Assembly (NCBI GenBank): GCA_038893835.1
Contig: JAWAQR010000002.1
Coordinates: forward strand, 32,001 to 96,000
Reading direction: 5' to 3'
From: Archaeoglobaceae archaeon
Lineage (GTDB): Archaea; Halobacteriota; Archaeoglobi; Archaeoglobales; Archaeoglobaceae
DNA length: 64,000 bases
Numbering within the stretch: the stretch's first letter is position 1; each line of letters begins with the position of its first letter. This document shows, one piece after another, positions 3,122 through 9,582 of this stretch. Below the pieces are notes generated by a model that searched no databases, had not been told where the DNA came from, and worked only from the letters and a program-made list of their open reading frames with translations. A program made the position numbers and the translations under genes.

Positions 3122-4000
3122 ATGTTGGAAGTTTACAAAAAGTTACCCAAAGAATCTTTTGAATTAATTCTAAGAAACTTTACTGTTAGGGAATATTTAA
3201 AAAATGCTTGGAATAAATTCCTTCTTTCTGGAAACTTAGAACCTTCAAGTCTTGAAAAAATCTTTGATGAACTCTTTAGATTCTTTCTTCGTCCATTTGA
3301 GCTAATAATTTTCAATGAAAAAATAGTTAGATCAATTTTTCCGATAGAAAAAATTCTAGTTGGTGAAGATGTTCTCTCCGCTTACACCGAATTCGTTGAA
3401 TCCTTTACTTCTCACATGAAGTTGACTTTCCAGCTTTTCTCTCAACCCTTCTTTGAGAGAATGCCTGTGGAGAATTTTATAGAAGAGTGGAAAAAGTTCT
3501 TCGATAAATTCGAGGTAAAACCTGTGATTCCATACGATCTACCCTTTGCTCTGCCAGAGAATGCAAAGAACTATCTTATCGACTGCATCTTGCATTGGAA
3601 AGAGTTTGTCATAGATTACGAAAAATACAGAGACTTACTCAGAAATTCCTACATGAAATCTGTTGAAAAGTTCTGCGAATTTTTGTCAAAATCCAAACCA
3701 AATAGTTTTGAAGAATTTAGAAACTCTTTCATGGATTTTATGGCAAAAGAATTCGATTCTTTGCTGATTTCAGAGGAATACCTGAAATTACAGCAAAAGC
3801 TCCTGGATGCCCTTTTTGACCATATCTACTGCCTTCGCAGATTCTTGGAGTTACTAATAGAGAACAATCCTGCTAGCCCATTTGCAACAGTATCGCAGAT
3901 CGATGAAGCTTACAAGCGGATCATGGATTTGAGGAGAAAAGTTTTGGAGCTTGAAAAAAGAATAGAATTGCTAGAGGGTAAGTATGCTCGAAAGGATTAA
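3122..4000 (+). CDS. phaE: Class III PHA synthase subunit PhaE-like protein
   Basis: All-helical; C-terminal PFATVSQIDEAYKRIMDLRRKVLELEKRIE resembles the PhaE box and coiled coil; overlaps the phaC start. Confidence 0.8.
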   Translation: MLEVYKKLPKESFELILRNFTVREYLKNAWNKFLLSGNLEPSSLEKIFDELFRFFLRPFELIIFNEKIVRSIFPIEKILVGEDVLSAYTEFVESFTSHMKLTFQLFSQPFFERMPVENFIEEWKKFFDKFEVKPVIPYDLPFALPENAKNYLIDCILHWKEFVIDYEKYRDLLRNSYMKSVEKFCEFLSKSKPNSFEEFRNSFMDFMAKEFDSLLISEEYLKLQQKLLDALFDHIYCLRRFLELLIENNPASPFATVSQIDEAYKRIMDLRRKVLELEKRIELLEGKYARKD

Positions 4001-4964
4001 AGATTTGGAAGTTAAGCCATGGAGCTGTGAGTTTGAAGTGGTCCATGAAGACTGGTTGTTCAAATTGCTCCACTTTAAGGGGGAGAGAAAGCATAGAACT
4101 CCTTTGTTGTTCGTTTACGCATTCATAAATCGCCCTTATATCCTCGATTTGCATGAAGATGTTAGCATAGTGAAAAAATTGGTCAAAGAGGGAATCGATG
4201 TATGGATGATCGACTGGGGATATCCGAAGAGGGCTGATAAGTTCTTTAGAATTTCGGATTACATAGATTACATAGATTTTTGCGTGGAGAAAATAAGAAG
4301 GGAAACAAAAAGCGACTCCATAACTCTCCATGGTTACTGTCTAGGTTCAACACTCTCAGTTATATACGCGAGCCTGTATCCTGAAAAGGTAAAGAATTTG
4401 GTGATTCAAACTCCGCCCATAAACTTCAATACCGAAAATACTTTAGCCATCTGGGCAAAGCACATAGATCCAAAGAAGATATCTAGAGCAGTTGGAAACG
4501 TGAGCGGTGAAATGTTGAATCTGGCATTTCTACTAATAGATCCAATTCGTCTCGTTTATGCAAAGTATCAAACTCTCTTGGACAATTTCGAAGATCCAAA
4601 GTTCTTAAGGGAATTCTTTTATATGGACTTCTGGATCTTTGACTCACCATCAATTCCAGGAAGCGTATTTGAGGAGTTCATAGAACGATGGTATCACAGG
4701 AACGAACTGATCGAAAATAGATATGATGTGAACGGGAGAAAGGTTGATTTGAACAACATAAAAATGCCAGTTCTAGCGCTTTATGCTGAAAAAGACCATA
4801 TAACTCCTCCGAGTTCAATCATTCCCTTCTTAGAAAAAATACCATCAAAGGATAAAAAGGTGCTTAGCGTTGATAAAGGACATATAGGCTTGACTGTGAG
4901 CAAGAGTTCGCATGCAAAATTGTGGAAAGAAGCGATAAAGTGGATAGTTGAGCACTCAGATTGA
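3984..4964 (+). CDS. phaC: Class III poly(R)-hydroxyalkanoate synthase subunit PhaC
   Basis: YAFINRPYILDL, IDWGYP, lipase box GYCLG (Cys119), AEKDHI (Asp271), KGHIGL (His300); 326 aa, class III size. Confidence 0.92.
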   Translation: MLERIKDLEVKPWSCEFEVVHEDWLFKLLHFKGERKHRTPLLFVYAFINRPYILDLHEDVSIVKKLVKEGIDVWMIDWGYPKRADKFFRISDYIDYIDFCVEKIRRETKSDSITLHGYCLGSTLSVIYASLYPEKVKNLVIQTPPINFNTENTLAIWAKHIDPKKISRAVGNVSGEMLNLAFLLIDPIRLVYAKYQTLLDNFEDPKFLREFFYMDFWIFDSPSIPGSVFEEFIERWYHRNELIENRYDVNGRKVDLNNIKMPVLALYAEKDHITPPSSIIPFLEKIPSKDKKVLSVDKGHIGLTVSKSSHAKLWKEAIKWIVEHSD

Positions 4965-6263
4965 TCTTAAATCCACAACTCTCCTTGCTTTTCCCATGGA
5001 TCTCTCTATTCTACCTTTTTCAACCAGCTCGACATTGGTTCTTAGCATTAGTTCCCTCTGCAATGCTTTTTGTATTTTCTCCTGCAATCTTTTCAAGTCT
5101 TCAAGCTCTCCTGTAAAGAACTCATCCCTTACCTCAACTCTTATAGTTATCTCATCCAGAGATCCTTTTCTAGTCAGCAATATCTGGAAGTTATCCCCCA
5201 CTTCAGGTATTTGCATCAAAACATGCTCTATCTGGCTTGGAAAAACGTTTACTCCACGAACTATGAGCATGTCATCGCTTCTCCCGAGAATTCTCATTAG
5301 TCTTGGATGTGTCCTTCCACAGGCACATTTTTCCGTTTCGATGATTGTTATGTCTCCCGTCCTATATCTCAATATCGGCATCGCTTCCTTAGTAAGGGGA
5401 GTTAACACGAGTTCTCCCCTTTCCCCTTCTCCAACTCTTTCCCCAGTCTCTGGGTCTATTATCTCGACGAAATAGTGATCGATCCAGATATGCAACCCCT
5501 GCTGCTCTTTACATTCAAAAGCAACTCCAGGTCCATTCATTTCGCTTAAACCATAGCTGTCATATGCCTTTATTCCAAAAGCATCCTCGAGCCTTTTTCT
5601 AGTATTCTCGCTCCAAGGTTCAGCACCAAAGCAACCAAATTTCAGCTTCAATTTATCCAGCAAACCCAGCTCTTCGGCAACTTCCTTAATGTGCAAAGCG
5701 TAGCTGGGTGTTGAATGAATCGCAGTTGTGCAGAAATCGACCATGTACTGTATTTGTCTTTCCGTATTTCCAACACCTGAAGGAATTGTTACAGCTCCAA
5801 TTTTCTCCGCTCCATACTGGAATCCCAGTCCTCCTGTGAAAAAGGCGTAATTCACTATGTTCTGGAAAACATCTCCCTTCCGAAGTCCTACCATGTAAAG
5901 ACATCTTGCAACCATATTTGCCCAAGTTTCTATGTCTTTGGCCGTATATCCTACAACTTTTGGCTTTCCAGAAGTGCCACTCGAGGTGTGTATCCTTACA
6001 ATCTCACTCTTTGGCACCGCAAACAATCCAAAAGGATAGTTTTCAGCGAAGTGTTCCTTTGTCGTGAAAGGTATTTTTTCAACGTCATCGAAGCTTTTTA
6101 TATCATCTGGAGTGACGTTTGCGGCTTTCATTCTTTTTTTAAAGAAAAAAACATTTTCATAAGCTCTCTTTATTGTTTGTTTTAATCTTTTAAACTGCAA
6201 CTCTTCAAGCTCTTCCTTTGGAAGACATTCTTCCCTATCCCAGAACTCCTCGCTCCATGGCAT
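4956..6263 (-). CDS. paaK: Phenylacetate-CoA ligase family protein (paralog 1)
   Basis: HTSSGTSGKP P-loop, GAEPW, YGLSE, RYRTGD, GRSDDM; substrate not determinable. Confidence 0.9.
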   Translation of the reverse strand: MPWSEEFWDREECLPKEELEELQFKRLKQTIKRAYENVFFFKKRMKAANVTPDDIKSFDDVEKIPFTTKEHFAENYPFGLFAVPKSEIVRIHTSSGTSGKPKVVGYTAKDIETWANMVARCLYMVGLRKGDVFQNIVNYAFFTGGLGFQYGAEKIGAVTIPSGVGNTERQIQYMVDFCTTAIHSTPSYALHIKEVAEELGLLDKLKLKFGCFGAEPWSENTRKRLEDAFGIKAYDSYGLSEMNGPGVAFECKEQQGLHIWIDHYFVEIIDPETGERVGEGERGELVLTPLTKEAMPILRYRTGDITIIETEKCACGRTHPRLMRILGRSDDMLIVRGVNVFPSQIEHVLMQIPEVGDNFQILLTRKGSLDEITIRVEVRDEFFTGELEDLKRLQEKIQKALQRELMLRTNVELVEKGRIERSMGKARRVVDLRSI

Positions 6264-6303
6264 ACTGTAACAAGCTCTTTGAGATGATAAAGATTCCCAA
6301 ATT

Positions 6304-7122
6304 CTAAAGGGGAAGCAGCTTTTTCAAATCGCTCGCAAAGATACCCGATTTATATCCATCCGGATTAATAAAAACTTTTTCAAATCCAATGGAAAGTAGG
6401 GAATCCTTTATGACTTCCTTAAATTCCATAACTTTCCAAATCTCATCCCTTTCAACTTCAACAACTGCAAGATTCTTGATAACTCTTACTCTCACGTTTC
6501 TAACCTTCGCAATTTTGATCACTAAATTCTCTGCTTTATCAATTCTTCTCAACATTTCTAAAGTTATTCTCATCTTAAACGGAATTCTAGTTGCTAAACA
6601 TGAAAGAGATGGACTGTTGTAAAAGGAAAAACCATAATCTTTCGCAATAGCTCTTATTTCCTCTTTTTTTATTCCAAAGCACGCCCATGGGCTAAAGGCT
6701 ATGCCAGAGTCTAGGACTGCTTTGTAGCCAGGTCTATGTTCCTGAAGATCGCTTCCATTTGTTCCTTCAAAGATCACTTCATAACCTTTTTCTTTTGCAA
6801 TTTCCGTCATTGCGCATATCATGGATTTTTTGCAGTAATAACATCTATTTTCTGAATTCTCTAAAAAATCCTTATTCTTAAATATATCAAATTCGAGAAA
6901 AACGTGTTTTAATCCAATTTCTTTTGCAACCTTTTTTGCATTCTCTATTTCCCTACTTGGAATATTTTCAGCTTTTATAGTTACAGCCAGTACATTTTCG
7001 ATCTCCTCTTTGCATATCGCTGCTAGAGTTGCGCTATCAACACCACCGCTAAAAGCAACAATTGCGTTGTTGAAATTTGAAAGAAAAGCTCTTAATTTTT
7101 CAAGTCTCTCTTTTAAGTCCAT
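6304..7122 (-). CDS. larE: ATP-dependent sulfur transferase, LarE family (PP-loop)
   Basis: SGGVDS PP-loop, RCYYCK, GTNGSD..RPG, SCLATRIP. Confidence 0.88.
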   Translation of the reverse strand: MDLKERLEKLRAFLSNFNNAIVAFSGGVDSATLAAICKEEIENVLAVTIKAENIPSREIENAKKVAKEIGLKHVFLEFDIFKNKDFLENSENRCYYCKKSMICAMTEIAKEKGYEVIFEGTNGSDLQEHRPGYKAVLDSGIAFSPWACFGIKKEEIRAIAKDYGFSFYNSPSLSCLATRIPFKMRITLEMLRRIDKAENLVIKIAKVRNVRVRVIKNLAVVEVERDEIWKVMEFKEVIKDSLLSIGFEKVFINPDGYKSGIFASDLKKLLPL

Positions 7123-7127
7123 GGAAA

Positions 7128-7319
7128 TTACTCGATCTGAATCTTTCTTATTTCCTTTTTCTCCTTTCTTTCTAATTCCTCTATTTTCTTTATTTGTGCA
7201 TCGATGAGACTTCTCAAGGCAATCAAGAACTCCTTATACGCTTTCAGCGTATGCTCCAAGAATTTTTCAGGAAAAACATCTTCTAAGCTTGGAACTGTGA
7301 TCCTTATATCTTTTGGCAT
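7128..7319 (-). CDS. Small amphipathic-helix protein with C-terminal IxI motif, coupled to the Get3/ArsA ATPase
   Basis: 63 aa; 4 bp from the upstream ATPase and 5 bp from larE; GGTGA RBS-like site upstream; ends IRKIQIE. Confidence 0.85.
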   Translation of the reverse strand: MPKDIRITVPSLEDVFPEKFLEHTLKAYKEFLIALRSLIDAQIKKIEELERKEKKEIRKIQIE

Positions 7320-7323
7320 ATCA

Positions 7324-8466
7324 TCACCTAAACCTTACTCGGATTTCGTTGTTATTAAAGCTTGCTCCAATTGTTTCCCTTAATCTAAGAACCTGTGGCA
7401 AGAATATCGTCCTTTTCCACTGTCCTGCAATGATGATAAGTTCTTCCCCTCTTCTATATATTTCTATATCCTCTTTTTTTAAAAATGGTACTTTTATCCT
7501 TAAAACATATTCATCTCCATTTTTTTCAACTTTCATGGGTCTCTCTGAGATCATCTTTTTGGTTGGATCAAAATCGAAGATCTTATCTGCTAGCTCGAAG
7601 AGTTTCTCTCCAACTATTTCGGATCGCTGGAAAGGTATCTGTATTATTGGGACTGGGAAAGATTGCTGTACCCTTTTGAGGTAATCTTCCTGCATCTTTA
7701 TCCAGTCAGAAAAGAAATCTCCTATGTCTTTTGGAAATACCTTGTTAACGATTACGCAATCCACGGTGTAGCCAAAGAGATTTAGATACGTAAAAGCTCT
7801 TTCAGACTCCTTTATAACCATCTTTTCTGGGTTCATGACAATTCTTATGGCAGCCTCATTTTCAAGGAGATCTTTTATCTTGCTTATCCTTACGTACATT
7901 TCTTGTATTTTATCCATTATCTCCTCACTCGGTAGAGGAATTTTGATCAAAGGCTCTGCAATTGGTTTTACTATTTTGAGCAATTTCTTTTCAATTCCAA
8001 AAAATCGATTCATATACCATTTGGCAACTTCCGGAACGCTGAGAAGGCGAAGAGTTTCTCCAGTCGGAGCACAGTCTAGGATTATTGTGTCGAAATTTCC
8101 CTTTTCGTAAAATTCCAACAAATTCAGAAGACTTGCAACTTCGTCGAATCCAGGTAAAATTGCCAGTTCTTCTGCTATGACATCTTCTATGCCTTGAGAT
8201 TTAAAGAAGAGGAGAAGATAGTCCTTTATAACTTCCCAGTGTTTCTTTAGCTCATATTCTACGTTGACTTCCATTCCGTAAAGTCTTTCGGCAATCTTTT
8301 TTGGCTCAGCACCAAGTTGGAATTGAAAGGAATCTGAAAGGCTATGTGCAGGGTCTGTTGAAATTATCAGCGTCTCATGTCCGAGATTTGCTGCCTTTAT
8401 TGCAGTCATTGCTGCAATCGTAGTTTTTCCAACTCCCCCTTTACCTGTGAATAGCAGGATGTTCAC
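7324..8466 (-). CDS. Get3/ArsA-family ATPase with C-terminal alpha-crystallin (HSP20-like) domain (Get3d architecture)
   Basis: GKGGVGKT, STDPAHSL, DCAPTG switch II, VNKV; C-terminal beta-rich YVLRIKVPF...ELIIIAGQWKRTIFLP...IRVRF; single ATPase domain, no CxxC. Confidence 0.92.
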   Translation of the reverse strand: MNILLFTGKGGVGKTTIAAMTAIKAANLGHETLIISTDPAHSLSDSFQFQLGAEPKKIAERLYGMEVNVEYELKKHWEVIKDYLLLFFKSQGIEDVIAEELAILPGFDEVASLLNLLEFYEKGNFDTIILDCAPTGETLRLLSVPEVAKWYMNRFFGIEKKLLKIVKPIAEPLIKIPLPSEEIMDKIQEMYVRISKIKDLLENEAAIRIVMNPEKMVIKESERAFTYLNLFGYTVDCVIVNKVFPKDIGDFFSDWIKMQEDYLKRVQQSFPVPIIQIPFQRSEIVGEKLFELADKIFDFDPTKKMISERPMKVEKNGDEYVLRIKVPFLKKEDIEIYRRGEELIIIAGQWKRTIFLPQVLRLRETIGASFNNNEIRVRFR

Positions 8467-8502
8467 AAAAACAAATCTTGTAAAATTTAAAAATCTTTGC
8501 AG

Positions 8503-8706
8503 TTATTCTTTCTTCTGCTGTTGTTTCCTCTTTATAACTTCTTCAAGCTTCTTTTCTAAAGGCTCCTGATGTGTGTAGGGGCAGATCAAATAATGCTCAA
8601 CAGCTTTTGCTATAGCATCTTTGGTTGCAACTTCACCGGTTTTCTTCTTCAACTCCTCTAAAACGTTTTCAGGCAATACAGTTTGTGCGTGGACGATCTT
8701 TACCAT
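8503..8706 (-). CDS. Small conserved archaeal protein (DUF5371-like, probable ribbon-helix-helix)
   Basis: KIVHAQTVLP..LEELKKKTGE..TKDAIAKAVEHYL pattern; GGGGTGA RBS upstream. Confidence 0.75.
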   Translation of the reverse strand: MVKIVHAQTVLPENVLEELKKKTGEVATKDAIAKAVEHYLICPYTHQEPLEKKLEEVIKRKQQQKKE

Positions 8707-8820
8707 CGATAATCACCCCCATTATAATTATCAACACAGCGTATATAAAGTTTTCTCATTATTATGATATCATACATTAACTTACATAAGGATTTTAAAG
8801 ACTTACACTCCAGTAGTCTC

Positions 8821-9582
8821 ATGATCCTTAAGGAAAGAAAGGACACTGTGCAACTTTTAATTTTGACAGAGCTGATGCTAAATCCCGAGTGTAATCAGAG
8901 AGATATAGCGAGAAAACTAAATCTAACACCCCAAGCAATTTCTGAATACTTCAAAGAACTAGTTGCTGAGGGCTTTCTAAGGGTTATCCATCGCGGATAT
9001 TACGAAGTAACCAAGAAAGGAGAGGACTGGTTGACAAAAAATCTACTCGATTTACACTTATTTACAGAGGAAATGCTGAAGAAGATATATTCAAAGACAA
9101 TCGTCGCGATTGCAGTTGGGGACATCGAAGAAAATTCCAGCGTAAAATACTGGTTTGAAGATGGATTCATTTTTGCAAAAAAGGAGGAAAATGGAAATGG
9201 AATAGCTCTAACTTCTGCAAAAGATGGAGAAGATGTGCTTTTGAAACCAACAGGTAGCTTTGAGGCGCCACAAAAAGGGGAAGTAATAGTTGCAAAAGTC
9301 CCCGATGTCGTTGAAGGGGGAAGCAGAAAGGCTAAGATAGAGATGCTCAGAGAGCTGATAAAGAGCAGACAGAGAAGCATAGTTGTTGCAATTGGTGTAG
9401 AAGCTCTTATTTCCTGCAGAAAGGCTGGAGTTGAACCGATCTTTTTTGGTGCAAAAGATGTATGTGTTGAAGCGGCGCATCATGGATGTGGAGTAATAGT
9501 TGTTTGCACAGAGAGCAGAACAAACGATCTCCTCAGAACCCTCATCGAAGAAGGATTGAAGTTTGAAGTCAAAGATTTTTGA
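8821..9582 (+). CDS. Winged-helix transcriptional regulator (COG1497-like)
   Basis: N-terminal QRDIARKLNLTPQAISEYFKELV HTH; C-terminal EAAHHG domain; start placed at the ATG at 8821. Confidence 0.8.
   Translation: MILKERKDTVQLLILTELMLNPECNQRDIARKLNLTPQAISEYFKELVAEGFLRVIHRGYYEVTKKGEDWLTKNLLDLHLFTEEMLKKIYSKTIVAIAVGDIEENSSVKYWFEDGFIFAKKEENGNGIALTSAKDGEDVLLKPTGSFEAPQKGEVIVAKVPDVVEGGSRKAKIEMLRELIKSRQRSIVVAIGVEALISCRKAGVEPIFFGAKDVCVEAAHHGCGVIVVCTESRTNDLLRTLIEEGLKFEVKDF

Follow-up and report, generated by a model that had tools for sequence, protein, structure and literature searches.

Get3-like ATPases that carry an alpha-crystallin domain (aCD) were catalogued between 2012 and 2019 and solved structurally in 2023, and in the available text of these studies the role of the aCD is called unclear and no partners are named (PMC10248533, PMC6593721). 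Barlow et al. (2023) pointed out that targeting of tail-anchored proteins by Get3d would require new partners (PMC10248533), and Bodensohn et al. (2019) reported that non-phototrophic bacteria have aCD-bearing homologues whose nucleotide sites are intact, suggested a general chaperone role and tabulated an archaeal 'Group 11' of single-domain proteins with a hydrophobic groove and an aCD and without CxC or CxxC (PMC6593721; statements taken from either paper, here and below, refer to the parts of its text that were available). Here we describe an aCD-bearing ATPase and the small gene that follows it in a 64,000-nucleotide stretch of an Archaeoglobaceae archaeon genome (assembly GCA_038893835.1, contig JAWAQR010000002.1, positions 32,001 to 96,000), which is referred to as the window. 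The genome (G000, 1.17 Mb and 97% complete), of whose contig 2 the window is a part, encodes the ATPase next to a 63-residue protein of the Pfam family PF27253 (AF_1253) that ends in an I-x-I-x motif, and the pair lies close to the polyhydroxyalkanoate (PHA) synthase genes phaE and phaC. An earlier note on this DNA had read the neighbourhood as a candidate storage-granule system. As judged from the comparison of genomes given below, the ATPase gene and the 63-residue protein gene appear instead to be a self-contained two-gene module that occurs across archaea and bacteria and that came to adjoin phaEC by local rearrangement.

Occurrence was profiled in 96 Archaeoglobi genomes (designated G###, with individual loci or neighbourhoods designated L###), in which phaC orthologues were accepted at E<1e-100 and the results cross-tabulated by hand; the genomes compared throughout this study are related, and hence the counts are not independent. 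A full-length ATPase with aCD was present in 64 of the 96 genomes, and all 64 also encode a member of the small-protein family, whose gene in 52 of them comes immediately downstream on the same strand, in most cases with a gap of 7-50 bp or an overlap. This order was kept with ATPases of 33-42% identity, namely in G076, G079 and G080 of the same genus, in three f6 genomes and in one f28 genome, and in such divergent pairs the small proteins were barely recognizable beyond the core helix and the tail. The flanking genes varied from genus to genus. Five further genomes of the same genus carry a 35-38%-identical version of the ATPase, and five others gave an ArsA-like match without the aCD.

Species-representative genomes were scanned with a degenerate DNA pattern of the core motif, which gave at least 120 loci, a biased sample in that it covers only members with one core motif. 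All of these loci contain a family member, and a full ATPase with aCD lies directly upstream in at least 57. At least 39 of these pairs come from records titled neither Archaeoglobi nor 'uncultured archaeon', the titles being Aminicenantes (10), Eubacteriales/Clostridiales (10), Dehalococcoidia (4), other Chloroflexota (5), Thermoplasmata/-ota (5), Deltaproteobacteria/Desulfaltia (2), Armatimonadota (1) and unclassified bacteria (2). Gaps of 4-15 bp or overlaps recurred across phyla, which argues for co-translation of a complex. The suggestion of the earlier note that the ATPase and the tailed small protein are a functional pair is upheld by this adjacency across phyla, unlike the phasin or granule role that it had assigned to them. 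In three loci with Chloroflexia or Thermoplasmata titles (L118:7002-7998, L085:697-2230 and L115:938-2519) 67-300 nt at the end of the ATPase gene are also covered, in another frame, by the small open reading frame (ORF), which may reflect long upstream starts, a real overlap or frameshifts.

PF27253 is precomputed for the 63-residue protein and for all seven of its relatives, and the nearest Atlas clusters carry PF27253 AF_1253; scans of the Pfam and NCBIfam libraries, the former in a copy without the PF27253 model, gave no match. A search with the family profile against 1.84 billion cluster representatives yielded 499 matches at E<=1e-3. No longer protein with the small-protein profile was found among 8000 candidates, which is weak evidence with regard to fused forms. 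In the AlphaFold2 (AF2) model the protein is a single helix (residues 18-57), and the last six residues are unstructured and of low confidence, as one would expect if a short linear motif lay at a flexible terminus. The helix is coiled-coil-prone, and the protein is moderately amphipathic, with a hydrophobic moment of ~0.45, a grand average of hydropathy (GRAVY) of -0.49 and a 3-4 spacing of hydrophobic residues; a transmembrane-grade segment was searched for in it and none was found. Lacking such a hydrophobic segment, it was rejected as a tail-anchored client. A C-terminal end of the form [IVLM]x[IVLM]x was present in 112 of the 150 best family representatives, compared with 226 of 4643 (4.9%) other mechanically called ORFs in the same loci.

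The presence of the tail was closely associated with that of the ATPase. After removal of 13 of the at least 120 pattern loci that had less than 1.3 kb of upstream sequence and of one with masked residues, the ATPase with aCD was found directly upstream of 54 of the 69 tail-bearing family members versus 2 of the 37 scored as tail-less among the matches listed. Both tail-less exceptions are ORFs cut by the locus end, whose tails are unseen, and all 35 complete tail-less cases among these matches are without an adjoining ATPase. The same association was evident where the two genes are unlinked: in the Chloroflexota, five of five genomes with a tail-bearing orphan have an ORF of 392-428 aa with a strong ArsA_HSP20 match elsewhere, versus none of five genomes with the tail-less form, which gave only weak matches of small heat shock protein (sHSP) size (147-179 aa). 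In the tail-less paralogues of Archaeoglobi a different motif replaces the ...SLID... segment, and in the three loci scanned (L037:6041-6663, L039:5475-6103 and L041:2341-3005) the gene after the paralogue encodes a HEAT/PBS-lyase-repeat protein of 150 aa; two more tail-less loci (L040 and L046) have a 150-151-aa gene in the same slot. The HEAT-repeat protein appears to be a second type of partner for the same helix core. Tail-bearing orphan copies were observed beside a GNAT acetyltransferase gene in genus g2 (L033:6007-6823) and before surE and rpiA in genus g4 (L036:6055-7674).

The ATPase is the sole Get3-like protein of the genome, with one strong match in its 1.17 Mb, and is predicted to be a catalytically intact Get3-like chaperone. 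Its P-loop, a deviant Walker A motif, and both switch regions (I and II) are intact; its sequence has no CXXC zinc motif and only two isolated cysteines. The AF2 model (pLDDT 85.4, pTM 0.84) shows the groove region (residues ~144-204) as helical and of low confidence. Foldseek placed the core nearest to the archaeal Get3 structures 3zq6 and 3ug6 (32-33% identity), and the only matches over the full length including the aCD were NosGet3d (8egk/3igf) and AtGet3d (8elf). In phmmer searches, archaeal Get3/TRC40 and algal ArsA1 scored ~1e-45 versus 5e-26 for NosGet3d (3igf) and 3.8e-13 for AtGet3d. The ATPase, which had been labelled 'Get3d-type', thus has the architecture of Get3d and yet falls outside the NosAFP equivalog of NCBIfam (NF050088; 166 bits against a cut-off of 325). 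In a BLASTP comparison the aCD aligned with the genome's own sHSP (E 5e-6) with a 20-residue gap at the position of the beta6 loop. The alignment ends ahead of the sHSP tail, and the ATPase itself stops right after strand beta9, without a C-terminal extension.

In sHSPs the C-terminal anchoring motif binds the beta4/beta8 groove of a neighbouring aCD, and co-chaperones with IPV motifs, such as BAG3, carry a short I/V-x-I/V motif. Nine canonical sHSPs from five Archaeoglobi genomes, including the present one, end in K-K-I-I-P-L-E, G-K-K-I-K-I/V-E, K-A-V-Q-I-E or K-E-I-K-I-E, and the tail of the small protein, [K/R]-K-I-x-I/V-E-COOH, shares its format with the sHSP tails of these genomes. From the gene anatomy, the conserved pairing, the association of the tail with the ATPase and this likeness, all of which were observed, we infer a contact between the two proteins, its site and its effect: the tail would dock in trans into the beta4/beta8 groove of the tail-less aCD of the ATPase, as sHSP tails do in neighbouring aCDs, and the docked protein would act as an adaptor or regulatory subunit, its helix bridging ATPase dimers, recruiting another component or gating the ATP-driven holdase cycle. 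On balance we favour this reading by a narrow measure. Its extension to the family, in which the tail-bearing PF27253 proteins would be a trans-acting 'C-terminal arm' of the aCD in Get3-like ATPases of at least seven prokaryotic lineages, the aCD having lost its tail and beta6 loop and a separate coiled-coil protein supplying the I-x-I anchor, is put forward tentatively and may well prove wrong.

Several observations weigh against docking of the tail on the ATPase. The pair is unlinked in 12 of the 64 ATPase-bearing Archaeoglobi (all seven such g4 genomes, G066, G067, G033, G093 and G057), as are 15 of the 69 tail-bearing pattern loci among the matches listed. Genus g2 keeps the tail-bearing small protein in 10 of 11 genomes and the ATPase with aCD in none of the 11, and in five of five g2 genomes checked the ArsA_HSP20 matches were solely to sHSP-sized ORFs; the tail is therefore not strictly dependent on the ATPase; canonical sHSPs may be served by it as well, or in place of the ATPase. 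Furthermore, in the published Get3d structures the aCD packs against the Get3 dimer interface and, in the text available, no aCD oligomers were observed (PMC10248533). Two runs of complex prediction with two copies each of the ATPase and the small protein gave ipSAE values of 0.24 and 0.26, below the mark of 0.32, which count neither way.

The strongest of the other explanations is that the amphipathic helix itself regulates or occupies the ATPase, sitting in the hydrophobic client groove or at the dimer interface in the manner of a plug, of a brake like Get4 or of an activator like MinE/ParG, and that the tail is secondary or meant for another partner. Deviant-Walker-A ATPases are commonly controlled by small partners, as in MinD-MinE, ParA-ParG and Get3-Get4, and the helix core H...A.KE.LLA.RSLID, with the hydrophobic spacing and moment given above, is conserved more widely than any other part of the family. 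However, the same core is found in the tail-less relatives, every complete one of which lies away from the ATPase among the matches listed, which occur in genomes lacking the ATPase and which in Archaeoglobi pair with the HEAT-repeat protein. As the tail-less relatives share the helix but not the ATPase, it is the tail, and not the helix alone, that specifies the ATPase; the helix also falls short of transmembrane-grade hydrophobicity. We regard regulation by the helix as unlikely.

Less probable still is that the small protein acts as an adaptor for canonical sHSPs in general, being merely co-transcribed with the ATPase in a stress regulon and making no direct contact with it. Such an adaptor would account for a tail format identical to that of sHSPs, for genus g2, which retains the tail with only canonical sHSPs, and for the tail-bearing orphans beside unrelated genes (GNAT, SurE/RpiA). 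However, canonical sHSP-sized aCD proteins were present in 15 of 15 genomes checked, yet the tail tracks the ATPase with aCD in the Chloroflexota, and the short gaps or overlaps conserved across phyla argue for a co-translated complex.

In the reading of the earlier note, the small protein is a phasin-like coat protein of PHA granules that is delivered or remodelled by the ATPase, with the adjacent CoA ligase supplying the synthase. The locus does encode a class III PHA synthase (PhaEC), with the lipase-box cysteine in PhaC and an adjacent PhaE; the pair physically adjoins phaEC in the window and in G089, and the protein has a small amphipathic helix, like phasins. In agreement with the note, none of the 10 proteins scanned at the locus gave a phasin-family match; the small protein itself had none in Pfam or NCBIfam at E<=0.01. 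The profiling comparison that had been fixed in advance nevertheless went against the granule coat. A phaC orthologue was detected in 34 of the 96 Archaeoglobi genomes, that is, in 18 of the 64 with the ATPase versus 16 of the 32 without it, so that 46 of the 64 ATPase-bearing genomes have no phaC, and at the level of whole genera, g4, g5, g13, g14, g17 and g18 carry the ATPase without a phaC match. Among the 18 genomes with both, a distance of not more than 10 kb was seen only in the present genome and in G089; the two loci of one closed genome are separated by ~1 Mb, and those of the others lie on separate contigs. The caveat that the adjacency to phaEC might be chance, which had been attached to the granule reading from the outset, thus holds. 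Among the at least 120 pattern loci phaC occurs only in L140, which is the G089 contig, and no phaC was found near any of the 39 pairs in records titled neither Archaeoglobi nor 'uncultured archaeon' (0/39 among the matches listed, in loci of <=8 kb).

The gene order in relatives accounts for the neighbourhood. In G089 the regulator gene, the DUF5371 gene, the ATPase gene, the small gene and paaK are followed by convergent phaC and phaE. G081, G084 and G079 retain phaE-phaC convergent with paaK and have the ATPase pair on other contigs, and G090 retains paaK, the ATPase gene and the small gene together and has phaEC on another contig; in both G090 and L149 paaK adjoins the ATPase gene and no phaC match was found inside the locus. 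The neighbourhood is thus the product of ordinary synteny decay on both sides of paaK and no conserved system, and phaE-phaC with the convergent PaaK-type ligase gene is a genus-level PHA synthase locus, a unit separate from the ATPase module. The PaaK type of the ligase also speaks against the reading of the earlier note; the position of the ligase gene beside the PHA synthase could be plain inherited synteny. The convergent overlap of phaC and paaK (4948-4964; L197, L198 and L204) was seen in at least five genomes of the genus. As far as genome comparison can tell, the ATPase module is without demonstrable connection to PHA granules and the apparent storage operon amounts to synteny noise, and we give almost no credence to a granule coat handled by the ATPase.

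A better phasin candidate was found with the same approach. In other genera phaEC is recurrently flanked by genes for a MaoC-like dehydratase, an AbrB-domain protein of 85-93 aa, a methyltransferase and a phaC paralogue, and a gene of 106-121 aa without a family match lies directly after the AbrB-domain gene, often beside phaEC. The 106-aa gene was present in 32 of the 96 genomes, namely in 32 of the 34 phaC-positive and none of the 62 phaC-negative ones, and in the two phaC-positive genomes without it phaC lies at a contig edge. The tracking of phaC by this gene shows that profiling at the present scale can pick up a genuine PHA partner, which the ATPase pair is not; phaC is instead tracked almost perfectly by the AbrB-type pair, which the present genome carries on contig 21. 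The granule phasin of Haloferax mediterranei is PhaP, and an AbrB-like domain is a feature of PhaR homologues (PMC10948481, in the part of its text available). The AbrB-domain gene and the 106-121-aa gene are thus a candidate archaeal phaR/phaP pair, with the former as putative regulator and the latter as putative phasin. One in-frame TAG was counted within the match to the AbrB-type gene of the present genome. Most phaC-positive genomes also encode a second PhaC-like protein, an alpha/beta hydrolase that is 35-39% identical to phaC and has a PhaC_N and a weak PHB_depo_C match (G000 contig 7, 21310-22218; L199:6387-7499); its gene adjoins phaEC in several genera and is unlinked to it in the present genome.

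The features of the locus are listed in Table 1. The ORF listing and the family scans bore out the gene set, positions, overlaps and gaps as first described: phaE shares 17 nt with phaC, the 3' ends of phaC and the CoA ligase gene converge with a 9-nt overlap, and the small gene is separated by 5 bp from larE and by 4 bp from the ATPase gene.

Table 1. Coordinates of the genes and domains discussed (window positions unless a contig or locus is named)
Feature	Position	Strand	Match or remark
phaE	3122-4000	+	PF09712, 26.9 bits (cut-off 25.7)
phaC	3984-4964	+	TIGR01836, 3.6e-101, 338.6 bits, just below the 365.3 cut-off; G-Y-C-L-G lipase box
PaaK-type aryl-acetate/phenylacetate-CoA ligase	4956-6263	-	TIGR02155, 1.2e-157, 524.8 bits, below the 646 cut-off
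larE, PP-loop sulfur transferase	6304-7122	-	TIGR00268, 1.8e-74
63-aa protein, PF27253 (AF_1253): short N-terminal strand-like segment, long amphipathic helix, flexible C-terminus	7128-7319	-	
I-Q-I-E tail (I-x-I-x-COOH motif) of the 63-aa protein	7131-7142	-	
Get3/ArsA-fold ATPase, 380 aa, with C-terminal aCD	7324-8466	-	PF02374, 1.2e-90
aCD of the ATPase, residues 317-379	7330-7518	-	PF17886 ArsA_HSP20, 4.6e-21
DUF5371 gene, upstream of the ATPase gene	8503-8706	-	PF17341, 1.1e-32
Winged-helix/DUF7839 regulator, divergent from the DUF5371 gene	8764-9582	+	PF25211, 2.2e-27; HTH_24, 2e-11
AbrB-domain gene and 106-121-aa gene (pair)	G000 contig 21, 19206-19749 (L205/L206); L199:4682-5264; L200:7655-8225		

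The regulator gene keeps its position in G089, whose arrangement is otherwise identical to the present one and lacks larE. The DUF5371 gene also precedes the ATPase gene in G089 and G084, and BLAST detected none in the remaining ATPase neighbourhoods examined. DUF5371 and larE were both rejected as members of the module, as their conservation stops at the nearest relatives. The start of the DUF5371 protein gives the impression of a ribbon-helix-helix DNA-binding motif. A TPR-repeat protein is encoded directly upstream of phaE, beside ftsZ (1904-2842), and in three relatives the slot upstream of phaE holds a gene for a histidine kinase of 483-486 aa (L197:4469-5929, L198:8539-9999 and L204:4352-5803). 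In a sediment metatranscriptome (X7), short contigs ~90-96% alike were found over 7003-7162, 7177-7341 and 8232-8623, and thereby span the junctions larE/small gene and DUF5371/ATPase as well as most of the small gene; X11 gave no match. These RNA-library contigs belong to a relative and are a weak hint that its locus is transcribed, proving neither transcription nor a single transcript.

A literature search that covered subscription journals and supplements thinly yielded no publication on PF27253/AF_1253, nor one describing a conserved partner for Get3 homologues with an aCD. With a conserved, co-encoded small protein that bears an sHSP-type docking tail, the open question of aCD function can be put to a simple test of binding, and the pairing gives a first functional context to an uncharacterized Pfam family of hundreds of sequence clusters. 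If the tail-bearing proteins do serve as a C-terminal arm, an sHSP-like scaffold assembly would be coupled to the ATP-driven Get3 clamp, and the small protein would be the first dedicated partner of this class of ATPases and a handle on aCD function, possibly up to the Get3d of phototrophs and chloroplasts. The storage-granule claim yielded a clean negative, and a better phasin candidate, encoded elsewhere in the genome, emerged from the same profiling.

With regard to known systems, the AbrB-type pair resembles the haloarchaeal phaR-phaP genes, a known archaeal solution for coating granules (PMC10948481, available text), in that an AbrB gene followed by a small gene often lies beside phaEC in Archaeoglobi; they are likened by arrangement only, and in contrast to the ATPase/small-protein pair it is this pair that co-occurs with phaC. 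The closest core of the ATPase is that of the solved archaeal Get3 proteins of M. thermautotrophicus (3zq6) and M. jannaschii (3ug6), which are without the aCD. The ATPase may fit the archaeal aCD-bearing Group 11, sharing four of its features in being archaeal, single-domain, aCD-bearing and without CxC/CxxC; the available text of that survey gives neither a function nor a conserved neighbour gene for the group (PMC6593721). Get3d (NosGet3d All4481, 3igf/8egk; Arabidopsis 8elf) likewise has one Get3 domain, a C-terminal aCD and no CXXC, aligns structurally with the present ATPase over its full length (391-409 columns, TMq 0.60-0.70) and shares the absence of the beta6 loop from the aCD (PMC10248533). 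Yet the two are only 22-23% identical, the nucleotide site is degenerate in At/NosGet3d (PMC10248533) and intact here, the present host is a non-phototrophic archaeon, and the text available mentions no partner protein of Get3d (PMC10248533). Finally, the tail of the small protein resembles the C-terminal motif of sHSPs and the motif of IPV-type co-chaperones in being a short I/V-x-I/V on a flexible end; it differs from sHSP tails in its location on a separate 63-residue protein encoded just after a tail-less aCD, into whose groove it would dock.

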